Below are positions 15,601 to 59,960 of a DNA stretch of 64,000 bases, in pieces. This DNA comes from Yuukianura sp. NJ FZ-2021 (lineage: Eukaryota), in the NCBI GenBank assembly GCA_046563655.1, contig CM102289.1, forward strand, positions 5,270,001 to 5,334,000, written 5' to 3'. The position numbers and the translations under genes are program-made. The notes under the pieces were generated by a model that did no database searches, was not told the origin of the DNA, and worked only from the letters and a program-made list of their open reading frames with translations. How positions within the stretch are numbered: the first letter of the stretch is position 1; every line of letters starts with the position of its first letter.

Positions 15601-18600
15601 AATTAAAACTTTTGTTGCGAAACACTCCAGGGAAAATCTTCTCTTCCACTGGCTTTTTTCGAATAAAAATAATCCCTTTTTTAGAAAACAAAGGAAAATT
15701 GGATTATTATGGATTACGACTTCACATCTTTCCTTACTCAACAATAGAGGAATTTAATCTGCAATATGGGTTACATGTCACACGCAAAGTTTTAGCGAGA
15801 ATTGAGGTAATTTCAAATGTCGAATTTGATCACTCGACGAAGCCTTGACTTGACCTTGGTTGATATTAATTTCCAAATGTATTTTTTTCCTTACCATTTT
15901 TTGCCACATCTCCTTCGGGTGGTGAATTTGTTAAGTTCAAAAGTTCACAGTTCAGATCCACATGTGAAGACTCGACATCCCAGCATAGCAGACCTACAAA
16001 TTCAGAAGGAAAAAATACGTTGAAAACCTAGTTTTTCTGACAATTAATACGGTGTTGTATGACTTCTCAAAGTAGGCACCAATTTCAAAACATTGTAATA
16101 TTCAAAATATACATAAAAAAAATTGAAGTTAAAAAAATTCAAGGCACCACATAAAACAAGGACGCAAAAATGACTTGGGTTTTGAGGAACAACCTGGAGT
16201 AAGCGACACATCTTGTTCATGTTTAGATTTTTTTACTTTAAGTGTTACCTGTATAAATCAAAGCGGGAATTTTCAAAATTTGAATTTTGCCCACATGGAT
16301 TGTTTTGAATTTTGAAACTCTGCCGTGGTTGACATTGTCAAATTTTAATTACAGCGGAAAACACGACGTGGTACCAAATCCTTTGTTCCTTTGTAATAAC
16401 AAGTTTCAACTTTCAGCCTTTTCTTCTGAAAATTGAATACCCGATACTTTTGACATTTGGGCACGCGCCGGATTTGACATTCGAAACAAAGTGAAAAGCT
16501 GTACCAAAGTTTAATGATATCCAATATTGGTTTTGAAGTTTGTTAAAATGCAATTTTCAGCTTTTCCAAAATGTTCAAAACTTTTTCTAACAATTTCTTT
16601 TGTTGTCGTAACCTGTTACGTAACCTGAACTGTTGACATTTCTATTTCAACTTTTAAGATTTGACGCCGCCTGGAGACTTCATGCTGTGAGCTGCTTTGT
16701 CGTCAGATTTTTTGGACAAGTCAAGTCTCATTTCTCCCTCAGTCACATTCCGCGCCAAATTCAAAATAGAACCAAACAACCCAAAATTTAACGTGGCGCG
16801 AAATCCAAAAAATGTCTGCATGTTCTTATACCACCACATAACCCTCTTGGAAGGTTTGGATGAATTTCCAGAAGTTTCTCATGTACTGCTGTAAGAGCAT
16901 ACGTGGAATTTTTAATTTTGGCAATGCTGAAAAAGTGAAAAAGTTTTTGAAATAGAGTCATTTTGAACACACAGCTCGGTGTTCACCGTATTGGACTCAT
17001 GTGAGAAAATTCTAGGAACGACGACACGACCCGAACATTCATTTCATTACGTACTAAGCATTGAAAACGGTAAGGTGAAAGTGTACACTCAAGAAAAAGT
17101 TTGCAGGTCGGGAAAAAAACAATTTTGAAAAAAGTTTTAGGCGGAAAAAATTGAATTATGGTAATGACACTATTTTCTCTAATCTTTTACAGGCCCTGGC
17201 CTCAGTGGTCCAATCTGAGGCATATACAGGTCTGTACTCTCTGGGAAAAACCTTGTTTAAATGAAAAATTTGAAAAACTGGTTGCGCACTTCAGTTTTGA
17301 GTCAATGCGCAACAATGCGCCATTCAACTACGACAAAATTACGGCACACATTGCGCATCTGATGGAATTTTGACATTGTTTGGAAAAGGTAAAGTGGGGA
17401 GTTGGCGGAAAGAATTAAGTGCGGAATCGATTCAAAAATTCGATTCTGGATTATGAAAAATCAAATGGATTGAATTAGGGAAGGCATTTGAAATTGATAT
17501 AAAACGCGAACATCTTCGATTAATTTTTTTTCTAAGATACACAGTGAAAAAATTGTATTCTTAAATTAAACTAAACTCACTCTTATAAAGACTTATTTGA
17601 CTTTACTTATCGTTTATACTCAGTTGTGTACACAACTTTTTACTAAATCTTAAATAATCGCAACTTTTGGTAAATAAAATAGTCAATTGAAAAGCATATA
17701 GTTGCTGAATTTTCGACATTACCATATAATGTATTAATCAGTATACAAAAAATTTCTTTTTGAGATTTTATAAACTCTAAAAAAGTTTCCAAAAGATAAG
17801 TTGTTTACGTTTCAAAATTTTTTAAAACAGAATACCCAGATTGAGTTTTGAATGGCAAAAGTGATTTCAACGTGCGAATCCCATTGTCTGGATTCCCGAT
17901 GACAATACAGGGGCAAAGTTTAGTGATTAGATTAGAGTAAAATTTCATAAAAATTCCAAACACGGAATAAGGTCAGCTCGAGGTCATAATGTACTTCTGC
18001 TAGTACTTTTGTTATTTCTGTCCCATTTCGTCACAAGTGGGTTTATTTGAAAAACCAAACCTTGTGACAATACGGGGCAATTTGGGATTGGCTGATAATT
18101 TTATCAGTAGCTTAACTTTACAATTTTCAATATTTAAAAAGCTCCAAGGTATGATCTAGCGGCACTTCCAAAATTTTTGAAACGTTGAAAGTTGCATACT
18201 TTTTTCTTGAAAGAAAAAACACATTCCAAAATGCTGTACGACGAAATCGAAGACAAAGAAATGGCGGCGAGGTTTTTGTCCCGCCAAAGTCAGCAAATTC
18301 AACCACAGCTCTGGGTTAAGTACAAACCCATGGGAACTTGTCTCCCAAAACATTTCGCAGACATTGTCCCCGAAATTCGCGACTTCGAAATTCGCGAAAG
18401 CGATGTTTTTGTGCTTTCAAACCCCAAATCTGGTGAGTATATTTTTGAAAACCAAAAAACGATATGATTTGTTTGTAATTTAAAAAACACATTTTTTATT
18501 TTTAGGAACGACATGGACACAGGAAATGGTTTGGCTTTTGGGTAACGACCTTGATTACGAAGGAGCCAAAACACTACTCAACATTCGCTTCCCATATTTA

Positions 18601-21600
18601 GAGTAAGAGTTTTTTTTTTCTAAAAACTTCAATTTTCTGATACTTTGAAATAACTTTTGAGACGTTCGTTATTTCATCTGTTGTTTTCGTTTAGATATGA
18701 TGGAATCGCGGGCCCAAGCATCAAGCAGAATCGGCAACTCCATCAAGTCTCGCTTGAGGATATGAAAAACTTACCATCTCCGCGTTTCATTAAGAGTCAT
18801 TTGCATTGGCCACTTTTGCCAAAACAAATCGAAACAAAGAAGCCTAAGATCGTATACGTAGCACGAAATCCAAAAGATCAGTGTGTCTCACTCTACCATT
18901 TTAAAGGACTCCTTTCGGGCTACACAGGCACAATGGAAGAATTCATTGAAGAATTCCTTGAAGGCTACTGTAAGTTTTCCAAGAATGTAAAGTCTTAGCT
19001 GAAATTTGAAAATTGCTTTTTTTTAATCCGTAGACATATGTGGCCCGTACTGGCCCCACATTCGTGAAGCCTGGAACCGACGAAACGAGCCGAACGTTCT
19101 CTTTCTGAAATACGAAGACATGATAAAGGTGGGTGAAATTGAGAGTTTTCGACACTGAGCAGTTGTGTGCAATTTTTCAATTTTTGCTTTTTTTTTGCAC
19201 AGGACTTGGGAGCAGTTGTGCGCCAGACTGCAGCGTTCTTAGGCAAATCGTACACGGACGAGCAATACGCCAAACTGGTTGACCATCTCAGTTTTGCGTC
19301 AATGAAGAACAATCCAGCAGTGAACAGCGAAGATTTGTATGAGGCTCTGTCCAAATATCATGGAAAACCAAAAACGACGAGTTTCATTAGGAAAGGAAAA
19401 GTCGGATCATGGGAAGAAGAATTAAGTCCAGAGTGTATCAAACGGGTGGACGATTGGATTGCCAAAAACAGAATTGACGGAATTTGGGAAAATGTGTAGC
19501 AAAAGCAAATAAACTTTAGCAAGAAAAAGTTATGCTACTTTCAATTTATAACAACAAAAACAAAAATTTCATCAGCGAAATAAACTCTAAAGTTTATAAT
19601 TAATTAAAAAAAATAGAGTTAAGTTTTTAATGATTTAATTATAATCTCATTGGCTGAACTTCAAATGACATGAGCTAGTCAAAATTTAAATTCAGTGGGT
19701 TTTCCAAAAATACAAAATCTGAAAGATAAAATTTTGAAAACCTTAAAAATAAAATTTCCAGAAACGTAAACGTAACTCCAGCTAAAGTGCTTGACAACAT
19801 AATCTTCCTGTCAGCTAATCTCTTCTGTAATTTTAGAATACATCTCAACATTGTGAATTTTCTGAAGTGGTATTCATTTTTCATTGAAACTTATCAGGGA
19901 AACCTATTGAATTTGTAATTAGCTAAGGGGCAAATTGTAAGTTCGTGACACTTTCAAAAATTTCTTTAACTTTCAGGCTTACGACTATTCAGAATTCCTA
20001 TAAAACAAGCAAAAATCAAAGTATTCTTTACCTCAAATTGCACAAAAAAGTCTTTTTTAAATATTCAGTCAGTGTCAAATGTTCGATCATGAAATTTAAA
20101 AATATCATATTCGATTCTACATGACCGACTTTGTTTTGGTATCAATTCTATTGTTTAAAGTTGGACAAATAAACGTTACACTTTGAGTGTGTTTCAAAAT
20201 CAGTTTTAAAGCTGCTATGTGGATTTGGACGTACTAATCTAAACCAATCAAGTTGGTTTTGTCACCGTTGACACTGATGCTCTACAATGTCAAATCTTGT
20301 GACTGGACTCAAGAGGCGGGTTTTCCCTTTATCAGAATTTTGCTAGGTGGATTCTACATTTAAATTTTGTATTTAGCAAGCGCCAAATTTCGACTTTATG
20401 TCAAATTTAAAAGGATTTCCAGTTCAAAAACCAAGTTACAAAAAATTTGAAATACAACTAAAATGCTGTATGAAGAAATTGACGATAAGGAAATGGCCGC
20501 CAAATTTTTGGGTCACCAAAATCAGCTCATGCAACCAAACCTCTGGGTCAAATACAAGCCCGTGGGAACTTGTTTACCAAAGGAATACGCAGAGCTCTAC
20601 GACAGAATTCGCGATTTTGAAGTTCGCGAAAGCGACGTTTTTGTACTTTCGAATCCAAAATCCGGTCAGTAAAAAGTGCTTTGAAAAAATTACTGATATT
20701 ATTCATTTGCTTATTCTTTTTTTGTGAAATATTTAAACTCAAATTTTAGGAACAACGTGGGCGCAAGAAATGGTTTGGCTTTTGGGGAATGACCTGAACT
20801 ACGACGGGGCGAAGCAACTGCTAAACATTCGGTTTCCATGTCTGGAGTAACATTTTGAACATTTCAAACTTTTAAAAATAAAAATTTGAGAACAATTTGG
20901 AAACGTTTTGAAGGTTTTAGTAATTTGCAGGTTTGATGGAGTTGGAAATCCAAGTTTCAAAGACGAGGATCAGTTGAAACAAAATTCACTTGACGTTATT
21001 AACAATACGCCGTCTCCACGCTACATCAAGAGTCATTTGCATTGGCAACTTTTGCCAAAGGAATTGGAAACGAAGAAACCAAAAATCGTTTACGTGGCGC
21101 GCAACCCAAAAGATCAATGCGTTTCATTTTTTCATCACAAAGGACTCACTGCCGGCTACAACGCCACTATGGATGAATTCGTCGAAGAATTTCTGGAAGG
21201 CTACTGTAACTCTTTCGAACCAACTTTTGCTTAGGAGTATATCATATTTCGAATTTTTTTTTCAAATCGACAGACCTCTGCGGACCATACTGGCCACACG
21301 TTCGTGAATTTTGGAACAGGCGGAACGAACCTAACGTTCTTTTTCTCAAGTACGAAGACATGAACAAGGTATGAATTTATTGGAATTGTTTAAAAACATA
21401 TTTGACCCTATGACATTTCTTTAATTTTTATTGATTGCACAGGATCTGGCTTCGGTTGTGCGAAAAACTGCAGCATTCCTAGGCAAAACGTACACGGATG
21501 ACCAGTTTGCTAAGCTCGTTCAACATCTCAGCTTCGACTCAATGAAAAACAACCCCGCAGTGAACAACGAAGAGGTCACTGAAACGTTGGCCAAGTTCCA

Positions 21601-24600
21601 TGGAAAACCCCAAGCTACGAACTTCATTCGAAAAGGAAAAGTGGAATCCTGGAAGGAGGAGCTGAGTAAGGAAGCAATCAAAAAATTGGATGACTGGATT
21701 GCCAAAAATAAAATTGAGGGAATTTGGCAAAACATTTAAAAAGAGCTATATATACCAAAATTAATGAGATATTACACTATTTTGGGGTTACACTAATTAT
21801 GAAAAAAAATATCTGAATTTCTTTTTAAAATGAGTTTTAAAATTTTATATTCCATTGTTAAAAATCTATATTTATATAATTTTTCTCATCATTTATGGGA
21901 ATGATTTTTTTTTCTTTTGGAGCCACAACGGTTTACAGTTTTTGAATTGAAAAATTGCTATTGGGTTAAAAATTTTCTAAAGAAGAAATTCCAACTAAAG
22001 AAATTGATGCTTTTCTGGCGCGTCGAAATCCCATTCAGGATTTCCAACGTCTTGTGAACTAGTGTGAGATACTGTGGTTTGTCTGCACTCGATTTCCATT
22101 TTTCAAGTAAATGAAAATTCTAAAATAAACTACAATTTTTTAATTTGAGTTTTTAAATTTTAAAATGTGAAAATTTTGAAAGACTTATAGAACAAAACAA
22201 AAGTAAACCGTTGTGAACGACATACGGAAGCAGCGAAATGAACATCAACGTATGACGGTGACGTGTATACCTTCAAACCAAGTGGTAAAATCTATGTATT
22301 AGTATATAGTAAGTATACAGTGCTATTGAATTTTCTCACATATGCGAAATGTTTTCTCACATAAGCAGTTTTGCTGTATTACTTAACCTAACCTAACCAA
22401 TTAAGGAGGGGTAATTATTTCGATTGTAGTTAAAAAAAGTATTAGTTTGATAGGCAATACACCGAGACACGGAACAATACTTTTTTGAAAAATCTCTGCC
22501 GTTAATAACCACGTATGAAACGCTGTACGAGATAAATGATAGAAAATTCAGGAACATTTTGCTTGCATTGTTCCGGAAATCTGTTTTTCAATCAATATCA
22601 GTGTTTGCTACAATGCATTTTTACGTACTTTTTGTATTTGTGTTTTTGTGTTATTTGTTGTTGTTTTTTTTGTAGTTTCAAGTGCTACTGGAAAAAATAT
22701 AACACAAGCGAAATAAATCTTTAACATTGCTATTGTACTTACAGCATAACGCAGAGTGACGAGTTCTATTGAGCCATAATTTCTGAGCCAGTTCAAGTTA
22801 ACAAAAAAAAATGTTGTACGAAGAATTTCAAGATGTAGAGTTTGCAGCCAAAATCTCCGCCCGTCACAATCATATTCTGCGCTCCGAGCCTTACGTTAAA
22901 TTTAAACCAACAGGAACTTGTTTGCCAAAATCGTACGTCGAGTGCTACGACGCTATTCGCAACCTGGAGGTGCGGGAAGACGATGTCTTTGTGCTCTCAC
23001 TACCAAAAGCAGGTTAAAAAACATGTAAAAAATTGTAAAGAATCAAATGCTTCCAAAAACTTTCAGTAATTTTTAATTTTTCAAAATGTTGCAAACTAGG
23101 ATCAACATGGGCACAAGAAATGGTGTGGCTTTTGGGACATGACCTCGACTACGAAGGAGCCAAAGTAGATCTCCACGCAAGGGTTCTACATTTGGAGTAA
23201 ACCATTTTAATACGTGAAAGTATAGTTCATTTTTGTATGTCCAATTTTTTGAATTGAATTTGCAGATTAGATGTCATAAGAGTTCACGACGTACAGGATA
23301 TTGTGTACCCTAAGCAAACGGCAGTTGAAATAATCCCAAGCATGGTCTCCCCTCGCTACATTAAGAGTCATTTGCATTGGCAACTTTTGCCGAAGGAAAT
23401 CGAATCCAAAAAACCGAAAATCGTTTACGTAGCGCGAAACCCCAAAGATGTATGTGTTTCGTATTTTCATCACAAAGTACTCATCAATGGATACGAAGGA
23501 ACAATGGATGACTTTGTAGAAGAGTTCCTAGCAGACTACTGTAATGGGCCATTTATAATAGTACAAAAAATTTAATTTTGATAGTAACATGTTGTTTAAA
23601 AATTGTACAGATATTGGCGCTCCATACTGGCCTCATGTATATGAATTCTGGAATCGACGACACGAGCCGAATATTCTGTTTCTAAAATACGAGGACATGA
23701 AAAAGGCAAACGCAGACTTAATATTAACTTAAGACATTCAGTATTTCAATTTCCAATTGTGTGTTTTGAACAAACAAATTGTCCTAATCTCTAAATTTTC
23801 TTTTTTGGTTGTGCAGGATTTGGCGACAGTTGTGCGCAAAACTGCTCAATTCTTAGGGAAATCGTACACTGATGAACAGTATGCCAAACTCATTGATCAT
23901 CTTAGTTTTGATTCAATTCGTAAAAACCCAGCAGTGAACAAGGAAACGATGATTGACCTTCTGATCAAAGTCCACGGAAAACCGAAAACTACAAGTTTCA
24001 TACGTAAAGGAAAAGTGGATTCTTGGAAGGAAGAATTGAGCCCGGAATCAATTAAAAAACTGGATGAATGGATTGCCAAGAATAAAATTGAGGGCATTTG
24101 GGAAAATATTTAAGAAACATTAATAACACTGTTAGCATAATTTTAGTTTTGTTTCAAATAAATCAAACATTTGATATTCCTGCAGTGGATTTTGAAAATC
24201 GCTTACGATTGCAAGTTCAAAAAAACGAAATTTTATAAGCAAAGGAAATATAGGCTATTCGAAAGCAGAACGAATCAGGAACAGGATGCCTGGATTGCCG
24301 AAAACAAAATAGGCTGAAATTGAGATAGAAACATTGCTATTGTGAGCAAGGTTGACGTTTAGTTGCAAGTAAATCAACAATTAGAACATTAACTTTATTT
24401 TAACCTGCGAAGGTCTTTAATGTCAATCTTTGAAATTTCCATAATTTTTTTCATCATCCAAGCGAACTTTTGTACAGATATTTGTGGAAAGCAAAAGCAA
24501 ACACTCTTAAATTATCTTGAACATGAAATTCATAAAGTGGAACGAGATAATTTCAATGATAATTCAATTTTTCAGTAATTTACAGAACTGATTTGAAATT

Positions 24601-27600
24601 TTCAGCAGCTAAATTTTCAGTGTAATTAAACATTTTGAACGATGTTGTACGAAGAACTTCAAGATAAGGAATTTGCCGCCAAACTTTTGGCACGTCAAAA
24701 TCCAAATGTTCAATCTGAACTGTTTGTAAAATTTCCACCCGTAGGAGCTTGGTTACCAAAACCATATGCTGAACACTACGACACTATTCGCAACCTGGAC
24801 GTACGTCAAGATGACGTTTATGTTTTGGGAATCCCAAAGAGCGGTAAAGAAAACTATTAAGTTACGATATTATTTAAATATATTTCAATTTCAATTCATA
24901 TTTTAGTTGTATATTCAAATATATTCTAATCTAACGTTTTTGGTATCACATATGTACATAAGGGTCAACCTGGACACAGGAAATGGTGTGGCTTCTGGGT
25001 CATGACCTTGACTATGAAGGAGCCAAAGTGCTTCTCAGCACTCGATTTCCACATTTAGAGTAAAAGAAATCCAGTTTAAGTTTGCTTTAATTTTTGCATA
25101 CACGTTTTAATTCGCAATTTTTTTTCGATATTGCAGAGTGGATTTTCTTAGAGTTTCAAATGTAAAAGGTGCTGCGCCAACAACGATTGACATAATCAAG
25201 AACGCGCCCTCTCCACGCTACATCAAAAGCCACGTTCACTGGCAACTTTTACCAAAACAAATCGAAACGAAGAAACCGAAAATTATTTACGTGGCGAGAA
25301 ACCCAAAAGATCAATGCGTTTCATATTTTCATTTCAAAGGACTCATCAGTGGATATGAAGGAACGATGGATGACTTTGTAGAGGAATTTATTGCAGACTA
25401 CTGTATGATCCAAATTTCAATTTTCTTTAAAAATGAAATTTTAAAAAGGAGAAATATTGCTGTACTATTTAGATGTTGGTGGGCCATACTGGGCTCACAT
25501 TAGCGAATTCTGGAACCGTAGAAACGAACCAAACATTCTCTTCGTTCGATATGAAGATATGAAAAAGGTATTTTGAAAACATTGCGTTGTGAACTGAAAA
25601 AATCTAACAACATACATTGGTGTTGTATTGTTTTTTAATCTCTCTCGCGCAGGATTTGCCAGGAATGGTGCGCAAAACTGCAGAATTTTTAGGAAAATCC
25701 TACACTGATGAGCAATATGCCAAACTTGTTGAACATCTCAGTTTTGAATCAATGAAAAAGAATTCAGCAGTGAACAACGAAAAACACGTTGAAGCTTTGA
25801 CCAAGTTTCATGGAAAACCAAAAACTACAGATTTCATTCGAAAAGGAAAAGTGGGATCATGGAAAGAAGAACTGAGTCCTGAATCTGTTAAAAAGCTGGA
25901 TGACTGGATTGCCAGAACAAAAATTGATGGAATTTGGGAAAATCTTTAAAAGCAAAATTTTTCAACAATTTCAAATTTGAAATAGTACTATGAATACAAT
26001 TTATGTCATCAAATGGATCCAAATCTGGTGAAATTGAGTTCGGAATTTGAGTGGTTTGCTTATTTCCAAAGTTTATGTCATTCTCGCTTCATCCGAAATA
26101 GCAATGTTAATAATGTGAAGCGGAGCCCTTTCTTTGGAAATCGGAAAAAAAATTCAACACGTTAGACTACTAATCTGCCCAAAAACCCATTTAAAGGACG
26201 TAGAAACTACAGTTTTATTTTTATTCCTTTTATTACTATGTCTTTTTTGACTTCAATGAAAATTTCACACCTATCTGTATCTAGTCGTAATTCCCGGATT
26301 TTATCTAGTTGAATTCATAATACGTCATGTTTTTGAAGTGTACAATTTCCCAGTGTAGATAACACTTCTAAAATTATTCATTTTTGACACTTTTTGAAAT
26401 TTTATTTTCCCAAGCAATTAAAAGCAGCTACATTTGATTCTGTTACAATTCCTCAACAATAATCCAAAACTTTCAAAAAATTGACATTCTCGTTTTGAAA
26501 AATGTCGCTGTATGAAGAAATTCCAGATGACGAATTTGCCGCCAAGTTGCTTGCTCGGCAAAATCCACCGGTGCGTTCAAATCTGCACGTAAAATTCCAA
26601 CCAGTAGGAGCATGCCTACCAAGAATTTACGCGGATCATTACGACGCCATTCGGAACATGGAAGTGCGGGAAGACGATGTTTGGATCATATCGATCCGAA
26701 AAACGGGTAAAACTTAACATTGTTTAAACTCGTTTGTAAGCAAATATTTGTAAACATTTTTACCATGTTTACTTTTGTTCTCTGTAGGAACAACATGGAG
26801 TCAAGAAATGCTTTGGCTTTTGGGTCATAATTTGGACTATGAGGGAGCAAAGGTGTATCTTGGTGATCGATTTCCATATTTGGAGTAAGCTTTCTTTCAT
26901 GATTATAATTCTTCAGAAATGCTAAAATTTAAACAACTTTGCAAAACTTTTTATGTTAGGTTTGACGCAATTACTCACGAGCGAGCACGCAATAATCCGG
27001 AACTTAAGCAAATGCCATTTGAGGATATTAAGAACATGCCGTCTCCACGCTACATCTCGACTCATCTTCACTTTGAACTTTTACCAAAAGAATTGGAAAC
27101 GAAGAAACCAAAAATTCTTTATGTAGCGCGCAATCCAAAAGCTCAATGTGTTTCACATTACCATCATAGAAGACTCATTGAAGGCTATGCTGGAACGCTG
27201 GACGATTTTGTTGAGGAATTTCTCGCAGGATATTGTAAGAAGCTAAAATCGTTAATTTTAGTTTAACCGTAGTTTAGAAATTTTTACATCTAAATTCAAG
27301 CGATTTCTTAGATAATGGCGCACCTTACTGGCCTCACATCCAGCCATTTTGGGATCGACGCAACGACCCTAACATTCTGTTCCTTACTTACGAAGAAATG
27401 AAAGCAGTAAGTAGTTGCATAACGAAGAAAACAAACAAACCTTGTGTACAGACCTCTCTATTTACTTCTTGTATGCTTTTTGCTGAAAGATTTCAAATTT
27501 TCTATTGTAGGATTTGCCGGCTGTAGTCCGAAAGGCTGCGGCGTTTTTAGGAAAATCGTATACGGATGAACAGTACGAAAAATTATACAAACACCTCAGC

Positions 27601-36600: not shown

Positions 36601-39600
36601 CACTTCAGAAACAAGCCATATGCGTGAAAACCTTGGAAATTTATGGGTCGTATTGGGTTTAGAAAAAGCATAACAGTTTTAGCAGTTGAATAAACTTAGA
36701 ACTAGAACTCTTTCGCGCGTGTGCCGTGGCAATTAAAATCATAAACGCTACGGTTTGAATCTAAACGTCAGTACTAGACAATCCACAAACAAAGTTTTGT
36801 TGCAAAAATACTAGAAAATGCTTTACGACGAACTTGAAGACAAAGAGCTTGCGCAGAAAGTGCTCGCCAGACAGAACGCAGTGGTGTATCCAGAAGTTTT
36901 TGTGAAATTCAAACCAGGCGGGTATTGGCTTCCGCGGGACTATGCCCAATACTACAACAGTATCCGAAACATGGATGTACGAGAAGACGACATCTGGGTG
37001 ATGTCACTGATGAAAGCTGGTACACTACTGCTTTGATTAGCTCATAACTTCAAAACTTCCGCTCTGCTTCCGCCAAATTTGAAACGAGCTTGGCGCTACC
37101 CAAAGTTTCAAATTTTCAAATTACATTTTAGACTGGAAAGATTAATTTTGACATTTCCCGCACCGTTCTGTTGCAGGTACAACATGGACACAAGAAATGG
37201 TTTGGCTTCTCGGAAATAATTTGGATTATGAAGGGGCAAAAACACTTCTCACGGTTCGCTTTCCATTTTTGGAGTAAGTAATCAAAATGTTGTCAGCTAC
37301 AGACAAATTCCAAAATTTCAAATTTAGAACTTATTTTTAATTTTTTCACTTGACGCCAGTTGGAGAATTAAGATGGTTAGCGACATACTCAAAGATGGCG
37401 CCACGCCCACTTCCATAAGCATTGTCAAAGAAACGAAATCTCCACGTTACATCAAAGCACATTTGCCCGCTGACCTTTACCCCAAGCAAATTGAAACGAA
37501 AAAACCGAAAATTATTTATGTTGCAAGAAACCCAAAAGACCAATGTGTGGCATACTACCACCATAAAGTTCTTATTGAAGGCTACAAAGGCACGCTAGAT
37601 GACTATGTAAATGAACATGTACAAGAGCTATGTAAGATTTAAAATTTCTTTCAACAACAATATTTTAAGAAAACAAATTCTTGAAATTTTGTTTTCGTAA
37701 AACTGTAATTGAATCAACAGCGCTTTTCTTTCCATACTGGAGTCACGTCAAAACTTTTTGGGAAAAGCGAAATGAACCGAACGTTCATTTCATTACGTAT
37801 GAAGCAATGAAGAAGGTAAAAAGAATGTTTTCACTTCAGCTGAAAGCAAATTTTAAAGAAGAAAAAACTTTTTAGCGGAAAAATTGAATTATGGTATAAT
37901 GACACACTCTCTTTTGACTGAAAATTGTGATTGTTTACAGGACTTGCCTTCAGTGGTGCGTTCTACTGCTAAATTTCTTGGAAAATCGTATTCTGATGAA
38001 GACTTGGAAAAGTTGGTTGCGCACTTGAGTTTCGAATCGATGCGGCACAATGCGTCAGTCAACTACGACGAAATCACGGAGTACATCACCAAGTTGTACG
38101 GAGGTCAACGGAAAACACATTTCATGCGAAAAGGAAAAGTGGGCAGTTGGCGGGAAGAATTAAGTACAAAGTCAGTCAAAAAATTAGACTCATGGATAGC
38201 CAAAAACCAAATGAAGGGAATTTGGGATGATATTTAAGTTAATCTAACGCCAATAACTCTAACTTGGTTAGCCTAACAATTGTATTTTAGTCAAAATCTA
38301 GGTCACATCAATGTTGGCCCACCTTTTGTTATGTCTAAAATTTTACGTTTTGAAAAATTCATAAACTAGCTGTCATTTAACGCAACCTATATAAAGATTT
38401 AGAAGCTTTTCAAAAACTTGCTTTTTGAAACGACAGTTTGAAAAAGAAAAAAACTAAACTTTTTTTTAACTAAAAACAAAAGACTTTCACTATGATTGAA
38501 AAGTAGATCAAAGTGAAGTCTTTTTCCTCTTTCTCAAAAAGTACAAAACCGAACTTCTTTCCAGAACCGAAATTACATTTCAGTAAGATTTCCCATCGGA
38601 ATATGCAGAGTTGGGCAAAATGCAAAATAAAAAGACGCTTTCACTCCTTCCTTCCGGGCAAAGGATTTCTAAGATTAAAGTTTCTCTTCCTCTCCAACTT
38701 CATACGTTATGCACACTGTCTAAAATGCCAAAAAAAATCTCTACGAAAGAGAATGTAAAAGTAGCAGCGTAATGGCGTTATTCAACTGCTTTTCCACGTC
38801 TTTTTCCAGACGAAACTTGGAACATGAAAGGGACTCTAGAGACTATCTGGATGTTTAAGATGTTCCAGTAGCTTCTTCTTCTGGAGGGTTTTTCTACCTT
38901 TAGACTTTACTGGTAAGGTAGCTTTCAAAAGTAAAATATTGCCCATAAAATCAATCATTTTGATTCTCCAAAAGTTCTCGGTGGGCAACAGAAAAAAGTT
39001 CTCCATTTCTTAGATTGTGCCAATCCTGGGGGAACGTGCAAAACCAAGCGTGGGAATTCGTGGTGAGGTTACGTAATTTTGAACTAAATTCTGTGAAATG
39101 GAAAATAGTAAGTGGTAAGCTTCGGCGCTAACGTTCAAACACGAACTCACTTTGAGTACATACGAACACTTTTATCGCTCCGTGCACGGAAACTATCTTT
39201 TTTCCTGGAAGTTTCTCGGTGAAGATGCTCTTGTTTTTTTTTACTAAAGTTTGTTTTCTGTTTCTTAAGAATTTTTTTGTTAAAAAATGTTTTGCTTCAT
39301 CTAAAAATCCCGAGAAGCTGCTCTTTTGCACATCCAAAGTTGTTTGGAGATGCAAAAACCCGACCTGTGACCTTTTGGCGTTTCCGACGTGTGTAACATA
39401 ACAACTGGTTTTTTCACATAATATTTTTTCAGCACAAAAATTTTCACACAAAAAAAATCTCATTTGACGAAAAAAAAACTCCTAGGATTTTACATTTTAG
39501 ATGGTTAAATTCTTTCCTTTCCAACAGTGTTTCATTATCCCTGCTGGTTACTTTCTCCGGAAAAGAATAGGTGGAACTTACGTTAGTTGCTGGGTATTAT

Positions 39601-42600
39601 ACAGTGAGCCATAAAAAGGCTGCAACGCTTTCACCGGAAGTTGATTTTTAAATCGTACTTTCACAGGCACAGGACAGCAAAACTTACAGATCTAATATAC
39701 TAGCCGAAGCTGGTTTATGTAGTAGATGCTGCCAGTACTTTCACTTTTTGAATTTTAATTAACAATTGGCTGTGAAAGCACGATTTAAAAAAACAACTTC
39801 CGGAGAAAGCGATGCAGCCTTTTATGGTTCTCTGTATGATTCTATTTACAGTGCAATATAAATAATTATCATTATATTTATGTTTATATTAATATTATAT
39901 TTATAATACATATATAGCTTTTTCTTCAGTGAATTCTGTTCATTGTGTAAACAGCAAAGGCTGTGATCGTTTGAATTTTGCTGATACCCACGGGGGTTGA
40001 CATCCCCAGGGAGAAGAGTCTGGTTTGGAACCGGCGAACCTTGTTTCCACATCTCGATCGAACAGAAAAATGTGACACAAATGTTAGAATTTAAAATTGA
40101 GTAAATTTTGCCCATGCCTGGTGGAGTTTATCTTCTTTGAGGGAGGGGGTTGCATAATTTATGAAGTAGGAGGAGGGGGAGGGGTACTTTGTCATTTTGT
40201 GAACTGTCACCGTCAGCATCTTCCATTGCTAGTGGCCTGATGGCTTAGATGGGATTTGGCAAATGTGTTTCCAAATTTGGCCAAGAGATGCTCAAATTTG
40301 GCCGGGAGACAGGACAATGAGGACTTCCGACTGTGGAAGTTACGTCATGGACGTTTTGTCTCCATCGTTTGTGGGCCTGTCAACGACAGGAGGTAATATG
40401 GGGGGTGGCTTTGGGTGTAAAGGGGTTGGAGCACAATTTCGATTCCAATGAATTAAATTAGAACTGACGTTCCACTTTCTCCGGTTCCATCAAAAAGTGA
40501 AAAGGCGCCCCGAAACGATTATAAATTCACAAAACGTTGAGCAATAAAAACGTCAGAAACTTTCTTCCTCTTGTGACAACCGGCATGAGAGTGATACAAA
40601 TGGTTCAAATGCGAGGCAGGTTCAGCACACGCCTCCATTTACAATTTCAACAGAACTCAAAAACTGGAATTTTCCCTTCATGATATGTTCAAGATGATTT
40701 CCTGTTAGAGGGTATGGAATTGCGCAGAAGCGAAACTTTTCAGAACTCCAAAACTACTTTTTAATAACAAAAAACTGTTGTTTTGACTTGAATAATTTGA
40801 ATTTGATCAAACAAAAGTAGTACGCATGAGTAACCAATATTTTAAATTCAAAAGGTAAAGTTTCAAAGTTACAAGGAAACGTCGAAGTGAACAGAGATGA
40901 GCTTCTGTGGAACTGATTTTTTTCTTTTCCAATGTAACAAAAAAAAGCAAACTAAAATTCAGCAGACCAGAACGAAAACATCCACATCCACGCTCTGCAA
41001 CTTTGTTACTCACTTTGACGCCTCTGGTGTACCATAACTTTCAAAAAAATGCATCACAGATGATGACATCAAATTTTATTCTTATTCAAAGTTTAAAAAT
41101 TTTAAAGGCAAGCCAAATTTAAAGAAATACTTAACTTAATGTAGCAGAAATGTTACTGAATAACAAGTAGTTCTTTGTTTCAACATTTACAAATTAAAAA
41201 ATAGCACGAATTTGTAAAGTGTGTGTTGTTTGTAATTTGGGCTTTTGCCTCCAGATTCTAATTTGACCTCAATTAATTATTGTCTGGGGAAGAAAATTAC
41301 TCAAGAAGCAAAAGAAAAAGCAATTTGCAAAAAGTCTTCGCACTTGCTTAACTGGAGGCAATTTTTGAAAGATTCTTCTTGCCATTTACTTGAATAAAAA
41401 AACGAGTGAAGTGATTTAACAAGAATGATCATCACGTTAGAAAAAAATCTGTAAAAAGTAGAACTTGTTCAAAGTAAAGTGGATCAGCCTTAAACTTTAA
41501 TATCACGTTTTATTTTGCACGAAATTGGCAATTATTTACAACACATCTATTATTACGCACATCCGTTCGGAAACTCACTTTATAACAACTTGCAAGTGGT
41601 CATGGACGTAGTCAATCGAGGCAGAGCGGCAGAGACGCCAAATTCTTAAACTTTCCCACCAGGGAGCACTCAATTTCCCTGTCTAAATGCTCTTGTAAAT
41701 TTTATCGTTATGGGAATCTCTAAAGGATTTGAGACAAGTTAGAGAAAATGCCACCGGGGATCTCATTTGTTGATTTCAATCTCGCACTATTCCTCAGACG
41801 TTAAGAATGTTTAAGTGAACAAAAGAAATTTAAATTTTAGACACTCCTTGAGTGTCTCGTTAGCAGTCACAGAAGTGACATCATAGAGATCTTGAACTTG
41901 ACATTTTTGGCATCTGTGCATATTGTGCACTTTTGTGTGCATGTGCATGACGCATATCGAATGTTACGACATTTGAAAAAACACAAGTCGCCTGAATCCC
42001 CATTTCTGGCAGACTTCCATTTTTTAAAAATTCATTCGATTGCAATTGATGCGTCAACGTAGCTTGTCATCACGTTTCTATTTCTTGTTATGTTCCTTAT
42101 ATTTATGGAGCTTACTATGAACTAACTGGTAATTACGGATGACTCAAACTGTTCAGTTATGTTTTGAATAAGAAAACACGAGTCACGACTACCCGGTTGG
42201 TTAGGCTGGTGAATAAACTCTGGTAATGCCGATGACATGCGAATTGGCACTAAAAACATACCTTTTGAAATCATAAACACGATGCTAAAGGAATGAAACG
42301 AAGTTCAAACCGGTAAATCGACAGAAATAGCAAAATGATTAAAGAAATTTGATTTGGAAATACTACAAACTGGTGAAGCCTAATTGCTGAGAAATTGCGG
42401 TAATTTAAAAATTCCATAATCAATCTCATTCTACGTGATTTGGTCGTGCAAGGAAAAGTTTCACAGAACTATACAGGAAGTTTGTTCGAGTTTAATAAAA
42501 TTGAAACTTGAGTGAAAACATCATTAGGCTACTATTTTGAAAATAAGAAATCCATCCCCTACGGTGAATAACAATGGAACTTTTTTTAACAAGTTTTCAT

Positions 42601-45600
42601 TGTTAATTAAAATTGAATGTTCAGAAATCACAACAAAGCATAAGGAAGCAAACAAAAAATGTTCTTCGCATCTTCGCATTTCATTTCAAAATTCCCATCG
42701 TTTTACAAATTCCTTCCGCCTAGCAGATGATGACTCATTTTTTAGAAACAATTTTTTGTGATTCGTTTTTTAAATAAAAACAAAAAACACAGAAATTGAA
42801 GTGTCTGCTAACGTGTTCCATGTCATTGGTCGTTTATTTTTTGTGTCTCAACACATGGTGTGTTCTTCCAAGCATTTCTTCTGTTCAAATCATTTTGTTC
42901 GTCATGCCTGTTCCCTCAGTCACACTTTACAAAATGTGTTTGAAAGTGACTGAAATGCTCAAGTCGTCGTGACTTATTTCCGGAGATGCTTCCCGAGTTT
43001 TTGTTGCGTTTGTCACTGACTCTAAGGAGTCATTAAAGCCCTCCTATCTTCAAAATCATCTACGATCTGAACAAGCTTCTTTTCCAAAAATTACTCACCC
43101 CTCCGTAACTTTACTTTTCCACCCCAACCAAAATAGGCCAAAAATAGAAGTACTTCTGTTTAAAATTTCAAAAAATTGCTCTTGTCAAAGTCCCCCTTGT
43201 TTTTCCTTGGTAAGAAAAAAGTTCCTTTCCGTTTCAGACTCTTTCAACATTAAAAAGTACCTCCAACATTTCAAATCCGATGACTCCGAAATTTAGCCAA
43301 CCCTTGGTCTAATAATTCATTTAAATGTGACCTCATTCAGGGAAGCAGAAAGTAACTAAATCAGTGTTTTAATATAAATCGAAATTAGAGCTCTAGAATT
43401 AGTTCCTTTCAAAATTTAGAGCCTTTCTCCTGATTTAGTATCTCTGGAACCACACAGTTTGAAATGAAAAAGCCAAGAGAAAGTGAAGAGAAAACACGAA
43501 ATTTTCGTCTTTTGAAATTCCCCGGGCACAACTTTCTCCTTGTTCTATTTCTTATTCTGAAGAGGCTAAACAATTCAATTAATTCAAGTCTTTCCCTTTC
43601 TGTGTTTACTCTAAGCTTCGTCTGATGTACTCTTCCATGAATCTTCAGTAAGGTCTTAATGCTTCTCAAATTTATTTCACTGTTTAAATTTAGTTAAAGG
43701 AAGAACCAAATTTGGGATAGAGTGAAACAAAAGCCGAAACTGATGACTAAAACTTTGTATTGTTTCGGGATTACTAACCGGGTCTTTCTTAACGGAAAGT
43801 GATAGGACAATGTCGTGTCGAGAGAAAGTAAAAGTGAAAGTCCAAATGCGGCTTTAGAGGGCGGTTTTAGTGGGGCTCAAGGGAGAAAGGATCGATATAA
43901 ACCGTCTAGCCACTGCTCGATGACGAAGAAAGTTGAATCAACAGAAAATTTGGGTTTTCTAGGTACACTTTTTGTTGTTCCATAAAAAAATTCTGAACGA
44001 GAAAGGTGACACAGGGTGAGTCCAGCCTCACTTTATGGCAATAAAAAACTAGGAAAAAGAAAAAAGTAATCGCCGGTTTGGGGGCGGAGAAAGTTTGTTC
44101 CATGCCATTTCTTACAGTGTTCTATGCCACTTCATCGAAAAAATTACAACGAAGCCAAATTTTCCGAATGAATTTCCACGAAACCATTTACAACGAAAGT
44201 TGAATTACATCGAAAGTAAAACTACAACGAAAGGAACATCAACCTAACTATCCGAATCACTATTGATCAGTTAGTAATGCAAGTTCGCTATTTCAGCACG
44301 GAAAATATAAGCGAACTCACTGAATGAATGAAACCATATACCTGTAGAAGGTTACCAGAGTGACGTTAAATGCTGTTTCATTCAGTGAATTCAATATTTC
44401 CCTGCGTTGAAGTCACAGTGTTAGGTCACTAACTGGGCCATAGCGATTAAACAGGTTTTTTGTTATGTTAGGTTGCGCGTATCTCTTTCGTTGAATTACA
44501 ACTTTCGTTGTTATTCTACTTTCCTTCTAAATCGACTTTCGTTGTAATTCCGCTTTCGTTGTAATCCAACTTTCGTTGTAATTCCACTTTCGCTGTGATT
44601 CGCTTCGGGGTAATTCAATTTTCGTTGTAATTGGTTTCGGAGAAATTTATTCGGGGAAATTTGCTTCGTTGTAATTCATTCGATGGAATGGCGTGCTCCC
44701 ATTTTACAGGATGATAAATGAAATGATATCATTGTTTTTCTTGTGTTAGGGCTTAGTCTAACATTAGGTTTGGTTAGGCTACATTATTTTTCTTTACAAC
44801 TATGCTATAAAATACTATTACGGTTTTTCTTTCCATATAATCGAAATTCCCCTTTTTTTGAAAAGTGAAAGTGAAATAACTGTCATTGTCACAATGAATC
44901 TCTACAATGCAGGGGGAGAAAGATTATAACTGTCATAATGTTGGATAGCTGAAGTAGAAGTACAGAAGTTCATGTTTTAATTTAAAGCACAAAGTTTAGC
45001 TCATTTCATGGATTCCCCTCGGAGTTTGAATTCGGAATTTAAATTCTCCTGGCGATGAAAGCTTTCTCTTTTGGTTGGCTGAGTTTTAGGTTGAAAAGGA
45101 AGGATTTTGTAACCTCAATCCATCCGTTTCCTAACAAACAGAAGCATTTCTCAACGTAGCCTGGAAGCCTTTACCAGCTAATGTGATTACAAGCGATCTC
45201 TGAAGCGATTGCAGACAAAAACCTCATCAAATAACGTCCAGAGTTGGACATCCGACCATTTCTCATTGTCAACAACTCCGACTTTAGGACTAACCCGTTA
45301 GCTTAGACTATTCGCAAAATTAGACAGCTTTAAATATGATAAAATGATGCGGAAAGTCCTAAAGAATCATTATTCCCACTCAAATAGTAAAGCCCACAAA
45401 ATTTCTCTGAGTGCTCGCAAATCCTTAAAGACTTTGTCTAAAATTACTGTAAATAGTAAATATTTGGGCCAGAATGCATGAATCTTTCTTTGCAAAATTA
45501 AATTGTTAAAAACCTAAAAGTTATTTACAGTCAATTGACCTCAAAGTTGAGGAAGTCTGGACTGCAGTGCAGTAGTTGATATTTGACTTGAAGGTTAAAA

Positions 45601-46523
45601 ACATTATCGTTCCATTACCCCATTGTAAATTCAATGGGGCCATGAAATCACTGGACTTTTGCTCTTCCAGAAAGAGTCACAGGGAGTCCAAACTTTGGCC
45701 TTTTGCATTTGTCAGCCATTTTGAGTCCAGGAGTCATCTACTAGGTAATTTGGAGGCTTCAATTGCTCTTTTGCGTTCATCGCTAATGACTCAGGGAAAA
45801 CTATTTCTGAATTTTGATTCAAAAACTTCCACGCACGCCACTCCAAATTAACTTCCAGATTTCAAAAGTTTACTAATGTCCAAACCTCTAATGACTTTTC
45901 ATCATCTCTAGCTTAAGCTCGGAACTAATTAACACTAATCAAAAAATTAAACGAACAACTACGTTTCATCAACTCAAACCTAATAGGGACTTTTGTTTTG
46001 AAAAAGTTTTGAAAGTTCTGGTAAACTAACAAGTAAGTTAATCTCCGGAGGTTTCTCAATTTGTAGTACTAAAAGTGCCTATTTTTAGACCAAGGTAAAT
46101 TGGAAACTCGTCAAAATATTTTTGACATTTTCAATTTTCCACCGGCCGGTTAAATGCATCAAGGCCGCAATGGTTCGAAGTGGCACAAACACACACACGA
46201 GAGATATGAATTAATGAACCACGCCTCAGTTTGCATGTCATGTTTTTGTGGTCCAATTTTTCATGTTACGAAATATGAAGGTGGGGTGAAACTAAAAGCC
46301 AGAATTATCGGAATTCCCGGAAGAAAATTGATGGTTTGCATTTTTGCTTACCTTTTGTTAGTCTGCGTATGATTTTGTCACGGTCTTCAGCCGAATGTGG
46401 TTCAGACAAAACGATGAGGAGGTACGCCCCGGTGAGGGGTGACATTTGACCTTTCTCTGCATTTTCTGACTGCGGAGATAAAATGTCAGCCTGCTTCTGC
46501 GCAGTCGCCGTGTCCGAGTCCAT
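455..46523 (-). CDS. futsch: Microtubule-associated protein Futsch (MAP1A/1B/1S family), 5 coding exons, 14001 nt, 4666 aa
   Basis: Exons 46523-46352, 15993-15895, 15032-14860, 14082-696 and 624-455 join in frame with GT-AG introns (phases 1,1,0,1). Conserved MAP1 N-terminal motifs: [78 protein letters not shown]-terminal light-chain motifs: [55 protein letters not shown]. Confidence 0.95.
696..14082 (-). CDS. futsch: futsch coding exon 4 (13,387 nt)
   Basis: Acceptor cttttag|GAC GGT ACA TTT ([14 protein letters not shown]) is in frame with the 4454-aa ORF. Donor TTA G|gtaaag at 696/695. Confidence 0.95.
1200..2350 (-). repeat. About 7 degenerate Thr/Ser/Gly-rich peptide repeats (roughly 40-50 aa) in Futsch
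   Basis: Recurring [15 protein letters not shown] and SLExFSxLPxGF motifs in the translation. Confidence 0.75.
4120..4497 (-). repeat. 9 x 42-nt (14-aa) coding tandem repeat, xPIFEKVKxPxxxE
   Basis: Units such as [14 protein letters not shown] and [17 protein letters not shown] motif ttttcactttttcaaaa recurs every 42 nt. Confidence 0.9.
9446..9910 (-). repeat. About 15.5 x 30-nt (10-aa) coding minisatellite, [10 protein letters not shown]
   Basis: ggactttcgctggtttgtcttcttctggtt recurs with a 30-nt period. Units 2-6 and 7-11 form a 150-nt higher-order duplication. Confidence 0.95.
14808..14821. promoter_or_regulatory. Candidate RFX X-box in futsch intron 3
   Basis: GTCACCATGGTAAC on the minus strand fits the X-box consensus GTHNYY-AT-RRNAAC. 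Motif match only. Confidence 0.35.
14860..15032 (-). CDS. futsch: futsch coding exon 3
   Basis: Acceptor tctttcag|GT, donor CAG|gtaacc. Encodes [58 protein letters not shown]. Confidence 0.95.
15895..15993 (-). CDS. futsch: futsch coding exon 2 (99 nt, not in the ORF track)
   Basis: Acceptor tttgtag|GT, donor ATG|gtaagg. Encodes [33 protein letters not shown], matching the MAP1/Futsch G-x-L-x-WD...HVDL motif. Phase 1 at both ends. Confidence 0.92.
16143..17491 (+). pseudogene. Degraded sulfotransferase pseudogene (exon 2-5 relics; SULT-9/10 type)
   Basis: Exon 2 relic (MTWVLRNNL..ctgga|gtaag). Exon 3 relic ([11 protein letters not shown]...[15 protein letters not shown]). Exon 4 relic [27 protein letters not shown] with two stops. 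Frameshifted exon 5 ([14 protein letters not shown]...[18 protein letters not shown]). Confidence 0.85.
18231..19499 (+). CDS. Cytosolic sulfotransferase SULT-1, 321 aa
   Basis: join(18231-18432,18506-18602,18695-18969,19034-19128,19203-19499), all GT-AG. 5'-PSB SNPKSGTTW, catalytic His in IKSHL, 3'-[15 protein letters not shown]-terminal RKGKVGSW. Confidence 0.93.
20463..21739 (+). CDS. Cytosolic sulfotransferase SULT-2, 321 aa
   Basis: join(20463-20664,20750-20846,20931-21205,21274-21368,21443-21739). [34 protein letters not shown]. Confidence 0.93.
22811..24113 (+). CDS. Cytosolic sulfotransferase SULT-3, 321 aa (intron 4 has a GC donor)
   Basis: join(22811-23012,23100-23196,23266-23540,23611-23705,23817-24113). 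[34 protein letters not shown]. Exon 4 donor is AAG|gcaaac. Confidence 0.87.
24176..24335 (+). pseudogene. Small relic of SULT exon 5
   Basis: Fragments read IPAVDFEN...[14 protein letters not shown]...[10 protein letters not shown], against NPAVNYEN...[14 protein letters not shown]...DxWIAKNKIxG in the intact genes. Contains deletions and stops. Confidence 0.65.
24642..25949 (+). CDS. Cytosolic sulfotransferase SULT-4, 318 aa
   Basis: join(24642-24843,24963-25059,25137-25402,25473-25567,25653-25949). [34 protein letters not shown]. Confidence 0.93.
26502..27807 (+). CDS. Cytosolic sulfotransferase SULT-5 (atypical motifs), 322 aa
   Basis: join(26502-26706,26788-26884,26960-27234,27312-27406,27511-27807). 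[34 protein letters not shown]. Confidence 0.92.
28445..29710 (+). CDS. Cytosolic sulfotransferase SULT-6, 323 aa
   Basis: join(28445-28646,28719-28815,28889-29166,29239-29333,29411-29710). [34 protein letters not shown]. Confidence 0.93.
30066..31421 (+). CDS. Cytosolic sulfotransferase SULT-7, 322 aa
   Basis: join(30066-30267,30349-30445,30577-30854,30932-31026,31125-31421). [35 protein letters not shown]. Confidence 0.9.
31772..31837 (+). pseudogene. 5' stub of a SULT-7-like gene, now a 21-codon ORF upstream of SULT-8
   Basis: [21 protein letters not shown] versus SULT-7 [19 protein letters not shown]. Its flank atctgagaaacaaATG matches SULT-7 atctgaaaacgaaATG. Confidence 0.85.
31822..33231 (+). 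repeat. 1.4-kb segmental copy of 28396-29795 (SULT-6 plus short flanks)
   Basis: Similarity covers exons, all four introns, the 5' flank from ccatagccgattt and the 3' flank to gaaggtatttgactaaagcc, and ends abruptly at both sides. Confidence 0.92.
31878..33147 (+). CDS. Cytosolic sulfotransferase SULT-8, recent duplicate of SULT-6, 323 aa
   Basis: join(31878-32079,32153-32249,32323-32600,32676-32770,32848-33147). [34 protein letters not shown]. Confidence 0.93.
33289..33761 (+). pseudogene. 3' remnant (exons 4-5) of a SULT-7-like gene
   Basis: Exon 4 relic [31 protein letters not shown] has no AG acceptor and an extra A before the donor. Exon 5 (33465-33761) is still open, DLPHVIEK...RKGKVGSW...GIWESI*. 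Confidence 0.88.
33929..34340 (+). pseudogene. Second, more decayed SULT exon 4-5 relic
   Basis: Starts taatttcaaaaattattg, like 33249. LFLTYEEMK at 34027, [18 protein letters not shown] at 34200, then further stops. Confidence 0.75.
34695..36474 (+). CDS. Cytosolic sulfotransferase SULT-9, 324 aa
   Basis: join(34695-34896,35023-35119,35587-35870,35954-36048,36178-36474). [35 protein letters not shown]. Confidence 0.92.
36818..38237 (+). CDS. Cytosolic sulfotransferase SULT-10, about 320 aa (exon 3 acceptor shifted)
   Basis: join(36818-37019,37177-37273,37360-37631,37721-37815,37941-38237). [35 protein letters not shown]. The exon 3 start is inferred from a cryptic in-frame CAG. Confidence 0.8.
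39602..39834. mobile_element. 233-bp MITE, Tc1/mariner type
   Basis: About 65-bp imperfect TIRs (cagtgagccataaaaaggctgcaacgctttcaccggaagttg... / ...caacttccggagaaagcgatgcagccttttatggttctctg), with TA on both sides (39600-39601, 39835-39836). No coding capacity. Confidence 0.88.
44117..44700. mobile_element. Foldback/Mutator-like non-autonomous element, almost entirely palindromic
   Basis: Left arm atgccacttcatcgaaaaaattacaacgaagccaaattttccgaatgaatttcc matches the reverse complement of the right end. Pairing continues inward to a spacer of about 40 nt (44335-44374). 17-nt subrepeats actttcgttgtaattcc. Possible degenerate TSD ttcttaca/attttaca. Confidence 0.82.
46352..46523 (-). CDS. futsch: futsch coding exon 1
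   Basis: ATG at 46523. Encodes [57 protein letters not shown]. Donor AAG|gtaagc is phase 1 and joins exon 2 to give RLTKGLLCWD. Confidence 0.9.
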
Positions 46524-59671: not shown

Positions 59672-59960
59672 GTGCATAAAACTGGAGAAAGAACTTTCTC
59701 AGCGAAAATTCCTAACAAGCTACTCCTGCCAGAATGTAATCGGACTTTAGCCTTTTGTACCAAATAATGTAAAAACTAACCTAAAACCTAAATAGCAGGC
59801 CTATACTAACCTAACAAAAACCTAAAGAACGCAGCAGTAACATTTTAGTTGTTACAAAACCTAAAACCTTGTAAAAAGCTTAGCTTCACATTCTAGTTGC
59901 AGAAAATTAGTAAAGCTCCGGTGAAGCTATGAGGAGAAAGCACTTTCTCCTTTTTTGCAC
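59672..59960. mobile_element. Possible decayed inverted-repeat element
   Basis: Ends gtgcataaaactggagaaagaactttctc and gagaaagcactttctccttttttgcac are inverted copies. Inner pairs such as agaatgt/acattct, and an aacctaa-rich core. No clear TSD. Confidence 0.45.

Follow-up and report, generated by a model that had tools for sequence, protein, structure and literature searches.

Host gene and its first intron

The stretch analysed here (hereafter the window) comprises 64,000 nt of the genome of Yuukianura sp. NJ FZ-2021 (GenBank assembly GCA_046563655.1, contig CM102289.1, positions 5,270,001 to 5,334,000 of the forward strand). Its minus strand carries a complete futsch/MAP1 gene, consisting of five coding exons with a coding sequence of 14,001 nt (4,666 codons plus stop). 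The first intron of this gene contains, on the plus strand, an array of ten cytosolic sulfotransferase (SULT) genes, designated S1 to S10, together with relics of further copies. All positions given below are those of the window.

The futsch gene begins with exon 1 (46352–46523, minus strand), which comprises an ATG at position 46523, 57 codons plus one base, and the donor G|GTAAGC at a phase 1 boundary; an in-frame stop is located upstream at 46590–46592 in the list of open reading frames (ORFs). A phase 1 intron of 30,358 nt (15994–46351) separates it from exon 2 (15895–15993), a 99-nt exon in phase 1 at both ends that is preceded by a pyrimidine-rich tract and an AG and followed by GTAAGG. 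Exon 3 (14860–15032; 173 nt) and the boundaries of the giant exon 4 (696–14082; 13,387 nt, with an open frame of 4,462 codons) were read from the sequence, the latter exon lying within an ORF of 4,465 codons (685–14082) that dominates the left of the window. The last coding exon, exon 5 (455–624, stop at 457–455), encodes a light-chain-like C-terminus and was located with the C-termini of homologues (tblastn, E 5.6e-48). These features, all on the minus strand, give the protein an architecture in which conserved N-terminal and light-chain-like C-terminal segments surround a giant low-complexity middle.

Pfam matches bear out the assignment of the host as futsch/MAP1, which had been proposed in an earlier, sequence-only reading of the window. 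The first 500 residues of the exon 4 ORF matched MBL_MAP1B (PF25281; E 2.5e-95) and positions 116–196 of the MAPB1_N profile (PF23415). The ORF that holds exon 3 (14848–15096) matched MAPB1_N positions 50–115 (E 1.3e-14), and exon 2 gave a weak but colinear match to positions 24–46 (E 0.03–0.13). MAPB1_N thus extends colinearly across exon 2 (weakly), exon 3 and exon 4, and is followed by the MBL-like MAP1B domain.

Exon 1 by itself yielded no Pfam match even at E 10, and its identity therefore rests on tblastn searches with homologues. At least 240 futsch homologues were listed, the closest of those listed showing 62% identity and insects approximately 50–55%. The N-terminal analyses made use of the first 120, of which 48 carry the N-terminal motif. 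When the 48 N-terminal pieces were searched against the whole window, only three sites were recovered at E<0.1, all on the minus strand: 46451–46350 (exon 1; best E 2.5e-10), 15994–15869 (exon 2; best E 6.3e-9) and 15036–14983 (exon 3; best E 4.5e-5). No second exon-1-like sequence was found in the window with these queries. The similarity to homologues ends exactly at the exon 1 donor and picks up exactly at the exon 2 acceptor. Moreover, the exon-1 and exon-2 motifs are 25 residues apart in the joined model, and in the homologues this spacing is 25 residues in 34 of 47 cases and 24 in the other 13. The unique matches and the family spacing uphold the earlier proposal that exon 1 (46523–46352) joins exon 2 (15993–15895) in phase across 30,358 nt, and suggest that the futsch pre-mRNA would be transcribed through the SULT array, with exon 1 spliced to exon 2.

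Approximately 15 of the 120 arthropod futsch predictions (P0006, P0018, P0019, P0025, P0044 and others) begin with unrelated residues, their homology starting exactly at the exon 1|2 boundary. Such models suggest that gene prediction often overlooks exon 1 and that the futsch family commonly has a long first intron. The unrelated residues spliced to the exon-2 motif could also be real alternative first exons, which would favor an arrangement in which the array is not nested for the main futsch transcript, most mRNAs starting at an unrecognised short exon near exon 2 and exon 1 at 46.5 kb belonging to a minor isoform. We consider such an arrangement very improbable: exon 1 encodes a conserved N-terminal part of the MAPB1_N region that is present in at least 47 of the 120 homologues, and it possesses a start codon, a stop upstream of it and a donor that fits the consensus. 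Furthermore, the upstream open extension of exon 2 (ORF 15866–16027) contains no in-frame ATG, and the first SULT relic begins 162 nt from the exon 2 acceptor, leaving little space for a promoter and an exon.

Ten five-exon SULT genes in the intron

Searching the window by tblastn with pieces of one SULT gene revealed ten sets with all five pieces, which occupy 18.2–38.2 kb and share the plus strand, and no further SULT match in the window outside 16.7–38.3 kb. Including its relics, the array occupies 16.2–38.3 kb of futsch intron 1. For the gene models, splice sites were enumerated and then assembled, and "five-exon" refers to five coding exons. The ten models consist of 318–324 codons, and each has an ATG and a stop, no internal stop, and the intron phases 1, 2, 1 and 0. 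The exons measure 202 or 205, 97, 266–284, 95, and 297 or 300 nt, and the introns 64–157 nt, plus one of 467 nt. GT donors are present in 39 of the 40 introns.

The array opens with the intact genes S1 (18231–19499; 321 aa) and S2 (20463–21739; 321 aa), which share 74% amino acid identity. They are followed by S3 (22811–24113; 321 aa), whose reading frame is open and whose intron 4 has a GC donor only (23705|23706), and by the intact S4 (24642–25949; 318 aa). S5 (26502–27807; 322 aa) and S7 (30066–31421; 322 aa) are open and flank the intact S6 (28445–29710; 323 aa), which is the source of the copy S8. The latter (31878–33147; 323 aa) is likewise intact. At the distal end lie the intact S9 (34695–36474; 324 aa), whose intron 2 is the one of 467 nt, and S10 (36818–38237; 320 aa), an open gene with a shifted intron 2 acceptor at 37360. 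The claim of ten intact five-exon SULT genes with identical phases, antisense within futsch intron 1, is consistent with the tblastn sets and the stop-free models, with the provisos that S3 uses a GC donor and that nesting follows from the homology-based host model.

The ten spliced SULT proteins align colinearly with the database protein P0121 (320 aa), gap-free at the exon junctions. P0121 derives from a 1.1-kb contig, too short for introns of this size, and its alignment lends indirect support to the predicted splice models.

A 5' untranslated region intron or a trans-splice acceptor just upstream of the SULT start codons was also considered. Scoring with a position weight matrix built from the 40 internal SULT acceptors exceeded the 95th percentile of the background in one of the ten genes (S4), with S6 borderline, and this candidate was rejected.

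Family membership and predicted activity

S3, the one gene scanned against the Pfam family PF00685 (Sulfotransfer_1; gathering cut-off 22), matched it with exon 3 (73.6 bits, E 2.2e-20) and exon 5 (65.2 bits, E 8.2e-18); the other nine genes are 55–71% identical to S3 at the amino acid level. The closest solved structures are retinol dehydratase, an Anopheles SULT, SULT4A1 and SULT1 enzymes. The best PDB matches to SULT exon 5 were Spodoptera retinol dehydratase (1fmj) and AgSULT-001425 (7r0o), with E values of 3.6e-11 and 7.4e-10. The Pfam match and the PDB relatives agree with the initial identification of the guest genes as cytosolic sulfotransferases.

The register of canonical residues was set by alignment to 1cjm. 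We take the elements that bind 3'-phosphoadenosine 5'-phosphosulfate (PAPS) to be the 5'-phosphosulfate-binding (5'-PSB) loop of the P-K-S-G-T-T-W type, the residues Arg130 and Ser138, and the R-K-G motif of the 3'-phosphate-binding (3'-PB) element. The Arg130-equivalent and the R-K-G motif are present in all ten genes, the PSB-loop Lys in nine (Arg in S7) and the Ser138-equivalent in nine (Ala in S10). The catalytic K-x-H pair corresponds to Lys106/His108 in human SULT1A3 and Lys150/His152 in AgSULT (PMC9356239). Its His is found in all ten genes and its partner Lys in nine, S5 having Ser instead. S1 retains all canonical residues. We interpret the ten genes as putative separate transcription units for predicted PAPS-dependent small-molecule sulfotransferases of the insect "luciferin sulfotransferase-like / retinol dehydratase" group.

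Relics and local duplication

Relics were searched for with exon hidden Markov models (HMMs) built from the ten genes and applied in six frames, together with sensitive blastn and tblastn. At least four relics had been claimed previously, and three clear relics (R1, R4 and R5) plus two small fragments, all on the plus strand, were found in futsch intron 1. R1 (16155–17515) is a degenerate SULT pseudogene that retains exons 2–5 with frameshifts and a stop, lacks exon 1, and is nearest to S9/S10; in blastn, 16155–16201 matched S7 exon 2 (E 3e-6) and 16762–17515 matched S10 (E 8e-64). The 162 nt measured from its start to the futsch exon 2 acceptor are close to the 150 nt or so reported in the sequence-only reading. 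R5 (approximately 33926–34339) comprises exons 4 and 5 in degenerate, frameshifted form, detected by tblastn and HMM, and its segment 33926–34093 matched 33246–33416 in blastn. A weak match to the tail of exon 5 was found at 24219–24311 (E 0.39).

The remaining relics are situated on either side of S8. Directly upstream of this gene, fragment R3 (31606–31828) comprises an S7-like 5' flank together with the beginning of exon 1, as indicated by a blastn match of 31606–31825 to 29901–30119 (71%) and an exon-1 HMM match at 31772–31828 (E 1e-3). On the other side, R4 (33292–33758) comprises S7-like exons 4 and 5 (HMM E 2.9e-18 and 1e-43), with 73% DNA identity to S7 at 30937–31413. Its exon 5 is open, with a dN/dS (ratio of nonsynonymous to synonymous substitution rates) like that of the intact genes; exons 1–3 are lost and the exon-4 donor is spoiled (AAG|AG). 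The truncation of R4 is probably recent. S8 with its flanks (31822–33231) is 91% identical in DNA sequence to the S6 region (28396–29795), and it lies between R3 and R4. Most simply, an older S7-like gene would have had its middle part replaced by a recent copy of S6. This region shows that duplication and loss operate in place inside the futsch intron.

Tandem arrays are prone to assembly errors, and exon 1 or the array might have been mis-joined to the futsch body. The window contains no N, and the SULT paralogues have diverged to at most 77% DNA identity, save the one 91% pair (S6/S8) of 1.4 kb, so that collapse or mis-joining of near-identical repeats is unlikely. Moreover, the join of exons 1 and 2 gives the exact family spacing and reading phase, and a chimeric join would need to sit in the featureless 38.3–46.3 kb. 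An artefact of this type is, in our judgement, extremely unlikely.

Selection, age and phylogeny of the array

The ten SULT proteins are 52–91% identical to each other. Nei-Gojobori comparisons of the 45 SULT pairs gave dN/dS values of 0.08–0.24 in the 33 pairs with a defined dS, those of S3 against the other copies being 0.10–0.17, and the other 12 pairs were saturated. Given this range wherever dS is defined, all ten SULT genes, S3 included, have been under purifying selection. Only S6/S8 (0.20) and S9/S10 (0.87) have a dS below 1, which, together with the 12 saturated pairs, indicates that most duplications in the array are old and that S8 is a recent duplicate of S6.

A tree was inferred from the ten SULTs and 48 other proteins, namely 45 single-domain representatives (290–360 aa) of the 150 listed plus P0121, P0122 and P0124, by a quick search with support from the Shimodaira–Hasegawa-like approximate likelihood ratio test (SH-aLRT) only. 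In this tree, the ten SULTs of the window form a clade with P0121 and P0124 (SH-aLRT 98), within which P0121 nests among the window genes, and the pairs (S1,S2), (S3,S4), (S6,S8) and (S9,S10) are recovered. P0121 is 58–67% identical to the window SULTs and at most approximately 50% identical to the representative matches. Only two near relatives stood among the SULT homologues listed, and of the named database proteins the insect "luciferin sulfotransferase-like" ones come closest.

These data bear on the earlier suggestion that the SULT family radiated inside futsch. At least the latest duplications took place in situ, as S8 derived from S6 illustrates, and this part of the suggestion holds. 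That the whole family is at home here is not supported, as further SULT genes may lie elsewhere in the genome. For the radiation as a whole the suggestion likewise lacks support: most pairs are saturated in dS, and P0121, a transcript-like homologue from another source, nests within the clade, so that the SULT radiation is old.

Five SULT database proteins (P0123, P0125, P0128, P0151 and P0159), one of them from a cockroach, are 600–1,080 aa long, with between two and eight SULT stretches each. Gene prediction seems to have merged neighbouring SULT genes of a tandem in these cases; if so, SULT arrays would also occur in other insects.

Remainder of the window

According to the Pfam and Rfam scans, no recognised feature lies in the distal 8 kb of the futsch intron (38300–46351) or in the 17 kb upstream of exon 1 (46600–64000). 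Between 38.3 and 64 kb, 55 of the 56 ORFs of at least 75 aa were scanned, the ORF of futsch exon 1 being left out, and none had a Pfam match above the gathering score; one 16-bit match was at chance level. No Rfam family was detected in the whole window.

The gene-free part of the intron includes an imperfect palindrome of 245 nt (39596–39840) with 72% identity to its own reverse complement, which may be a transposon remnant. A tandem repeat with a 17-nt unit and approximately nine copies is located at 44485–44647, and its unit recurs in reverse complement at 44188–44233. The GC content is 41% at 46–48 kb around futsch exon 1 and 34–38% in the intron. Over futsch exon 4 the AT skew is strongly negative, falling as low as -0.39, and over the SULT array it is mildly positive, reaching +0.10; these opposite skews (1–14000 versus 16000–38000) fit coding on opposite strands.

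Comparison with known nested clusters and SULT expansions

The closest counterpart is the insect cluster of GMC oxidoreductases: 12 paralogues, all oriented alike and transcribed against their host flotillin-2, take up 81 kb of its second intron (83 kb), and the arrangement is conserved in four orders (Iida et al. 2007, PMC1891103). Like that cluster, the SULT array consists of tandem paralogous genes for small-molecule enzymes, in one orientation within one large 5' intron and antisense to an unrelated host, and has grown by tandem duplication. The guest genes of the window are paralogous, arranged in tandem, all opposite to the host and confined to one intron, as in a nested cluster of the GMC/flotillin-2 type, with the host junction derived from homology and splice signals. 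In contrast to the GMC case, the guests are SULTs, the host is futsch, and the arrangement is more compact, with 22 kb in a 30-kb intron as against 81 kb in 83 kb. Amino acid identity among the GMC paralogues of D. melanogaster is 27–69% (PMC1891103), compared with 52–91% for the SULTs. Conservation across orders has been shown for the GMC cluster. For the futsch locus, the comparison covered the metagenome locus L001, which holds the closest futsch relative (62% amino acid identity); it ends 448 nt upstream of the exon-4 homologue, and no SULT and no match to exons 2 or 3 was found in it.

A second nested paralogue cluster is that of the TipE genes in the last intron of CG18675, which contains four or five genes in mixed orientation, one of them a retrogene, and whose expression has been reported to be independent of the host (PMC3240667). 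The SULT array resembles it in being a cluster of paralogues in a host intron, and differs in its single orientation and retained introns.

With regard to the enzymes themselves, the window genes share with insect cytosolic sulfotransferases such as retinol dehydratase (1fmj) and AgSULT-001425 (7r0o) the PF00685 domain and, in nine of ten cases, the K-x-H pair, but they form a clade of their own with P0121 and P0124. The SULT expansion described in ticks amounts to approximately 130–200 genes, mostly mono-exonic, that arose partly by retroposition and by tandem duplication and left many fragments (PMC11752866). The window SULTs likewise represent an arthropod expansion by tandem duplication that leaves fragments, but they are far fewer and all retain four introns at the same positions. 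Among the papers listed in a literature search and judged by title and the start of the abstract, none ties futsch to a sulfotransferase cluster.

Proposed history and orientation of the array

Taken together, the locus is best read as a nested gene-family cluster, and we consider it likely that the SULT array, antisense in futsch intron 1, grew by local tandem duplication. In the scenario we propose, a founder cytosolic sulfotransferase gene would have come, in antisense orientation, into the long first intron of an arthropod futsch/MAP1 gene, and repeated local tandem duplication by unequal crossing-over would have produced a head-to-tail array. The uniform strand and the identical intron phases are expected because tandem duplication copies both orientation and exon structure. 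Since the four introns have been kept in the same places in every copy, retroposition played no part. Birth and death would be ongoing, with neighbours as closest relatives, S8 having overwritten an S7-like gene, and truncated copies decaying. Host and guests would be regulated independently of each other.

In surveys of Drosophila and human genes, nested genes lie antisense to their host more often than in sense orientation. The strict orientation of the array could be regarded as an adaptation, in which the splice and poly(A) signals of sense-oriented guests would truncate futsch and nesting would enforce exclusive expression of futsch (in neurons) and of the SULT genes. Consistent with this idea, the ten genes and all relics are antisense to futsch, and the guests of the GMC/flotillin-2 cluster are also almost all antisense to their host in four insect orders (PMC1891103). 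However, tandem duplication alone yields one orientation, so the sample amounts to one founder and not to the fourteen observations implied when strict antisense orientation was taken as a sign of selection. Furthermore, neither strand of the intron is markedly richer in poly(A) hexamers: there are 23 copies of AATAAA on the sense strand of futsch and 29 on the opposite one, and 30 and 27 copies of ATTAAA, respectively. Since many hexamers are present on the sense strand, the host already tolerates them. The orientation is thus poor evidence of selection, and we hold the adaptive explanation to be rather unlikely.

Several observations weigh against the reading of the locus as a nested cluster of independently transcribed genes. 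In the 200 nt upstream of the ten ATGs, neither a shared promoter motif nor a TATA-like box was found, and matches to an initiator-like (Inr-like) element are scattered over four SULT genes at inconsistent positions. AATAAA or ATTAAA was not found within 380 nt past the stop in two SULT genes or within 400 nt in one. Given the missing promoter motifs and hexamers, the independent SULT transcription units are only assumed. Intron 4 of S3 relies on the non-canonical GC donor AAG|GCAAAC, and S5, S7 and S10 each lack one canonical residue, so that not all ten genes need be active sulfotransferases. In addition, a short non-homologous alternative first exon of futsch may exist below the array. Homology and sequence signals are the basis for the 46352^15993 junction, for the SULT splice models and for the predicted expression.

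Biological meaning

A more far-reaching view would be that the futsch intron is a long-standing home and the birthplace of a SULT clade in a poorly sampled hexapod-like lineage, that the nesting has been kept for very long, as with the GMC genes in flotillin-2, and that head-on transcription prevents neuronal futsch and the SULT genes from being expressed together. The intron would then switch a battery of detoxification or signal-inactivation genes according to tissue. We regard this view as distinctly unlikely.

By itself, the nested cluster of SULT genes changes nothing that is known: there are precedents for nested clusters, for tandem SULT expansions and for antisense nesting. It adds a second, clean and compact case of an entire enzyme-gene array placed antisense within a 5' intron of a host gene that is long, of neuronal type and unrelated to its guests, and a single 30-kb stretch displays intact genes, datable duplicates and decaying copies side by side. 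Should related genomes share the nesting, the locus would become a test case for whether intronic nesting stabilises gene clusters and for whether head-on transcription couples the expression of host and guests.

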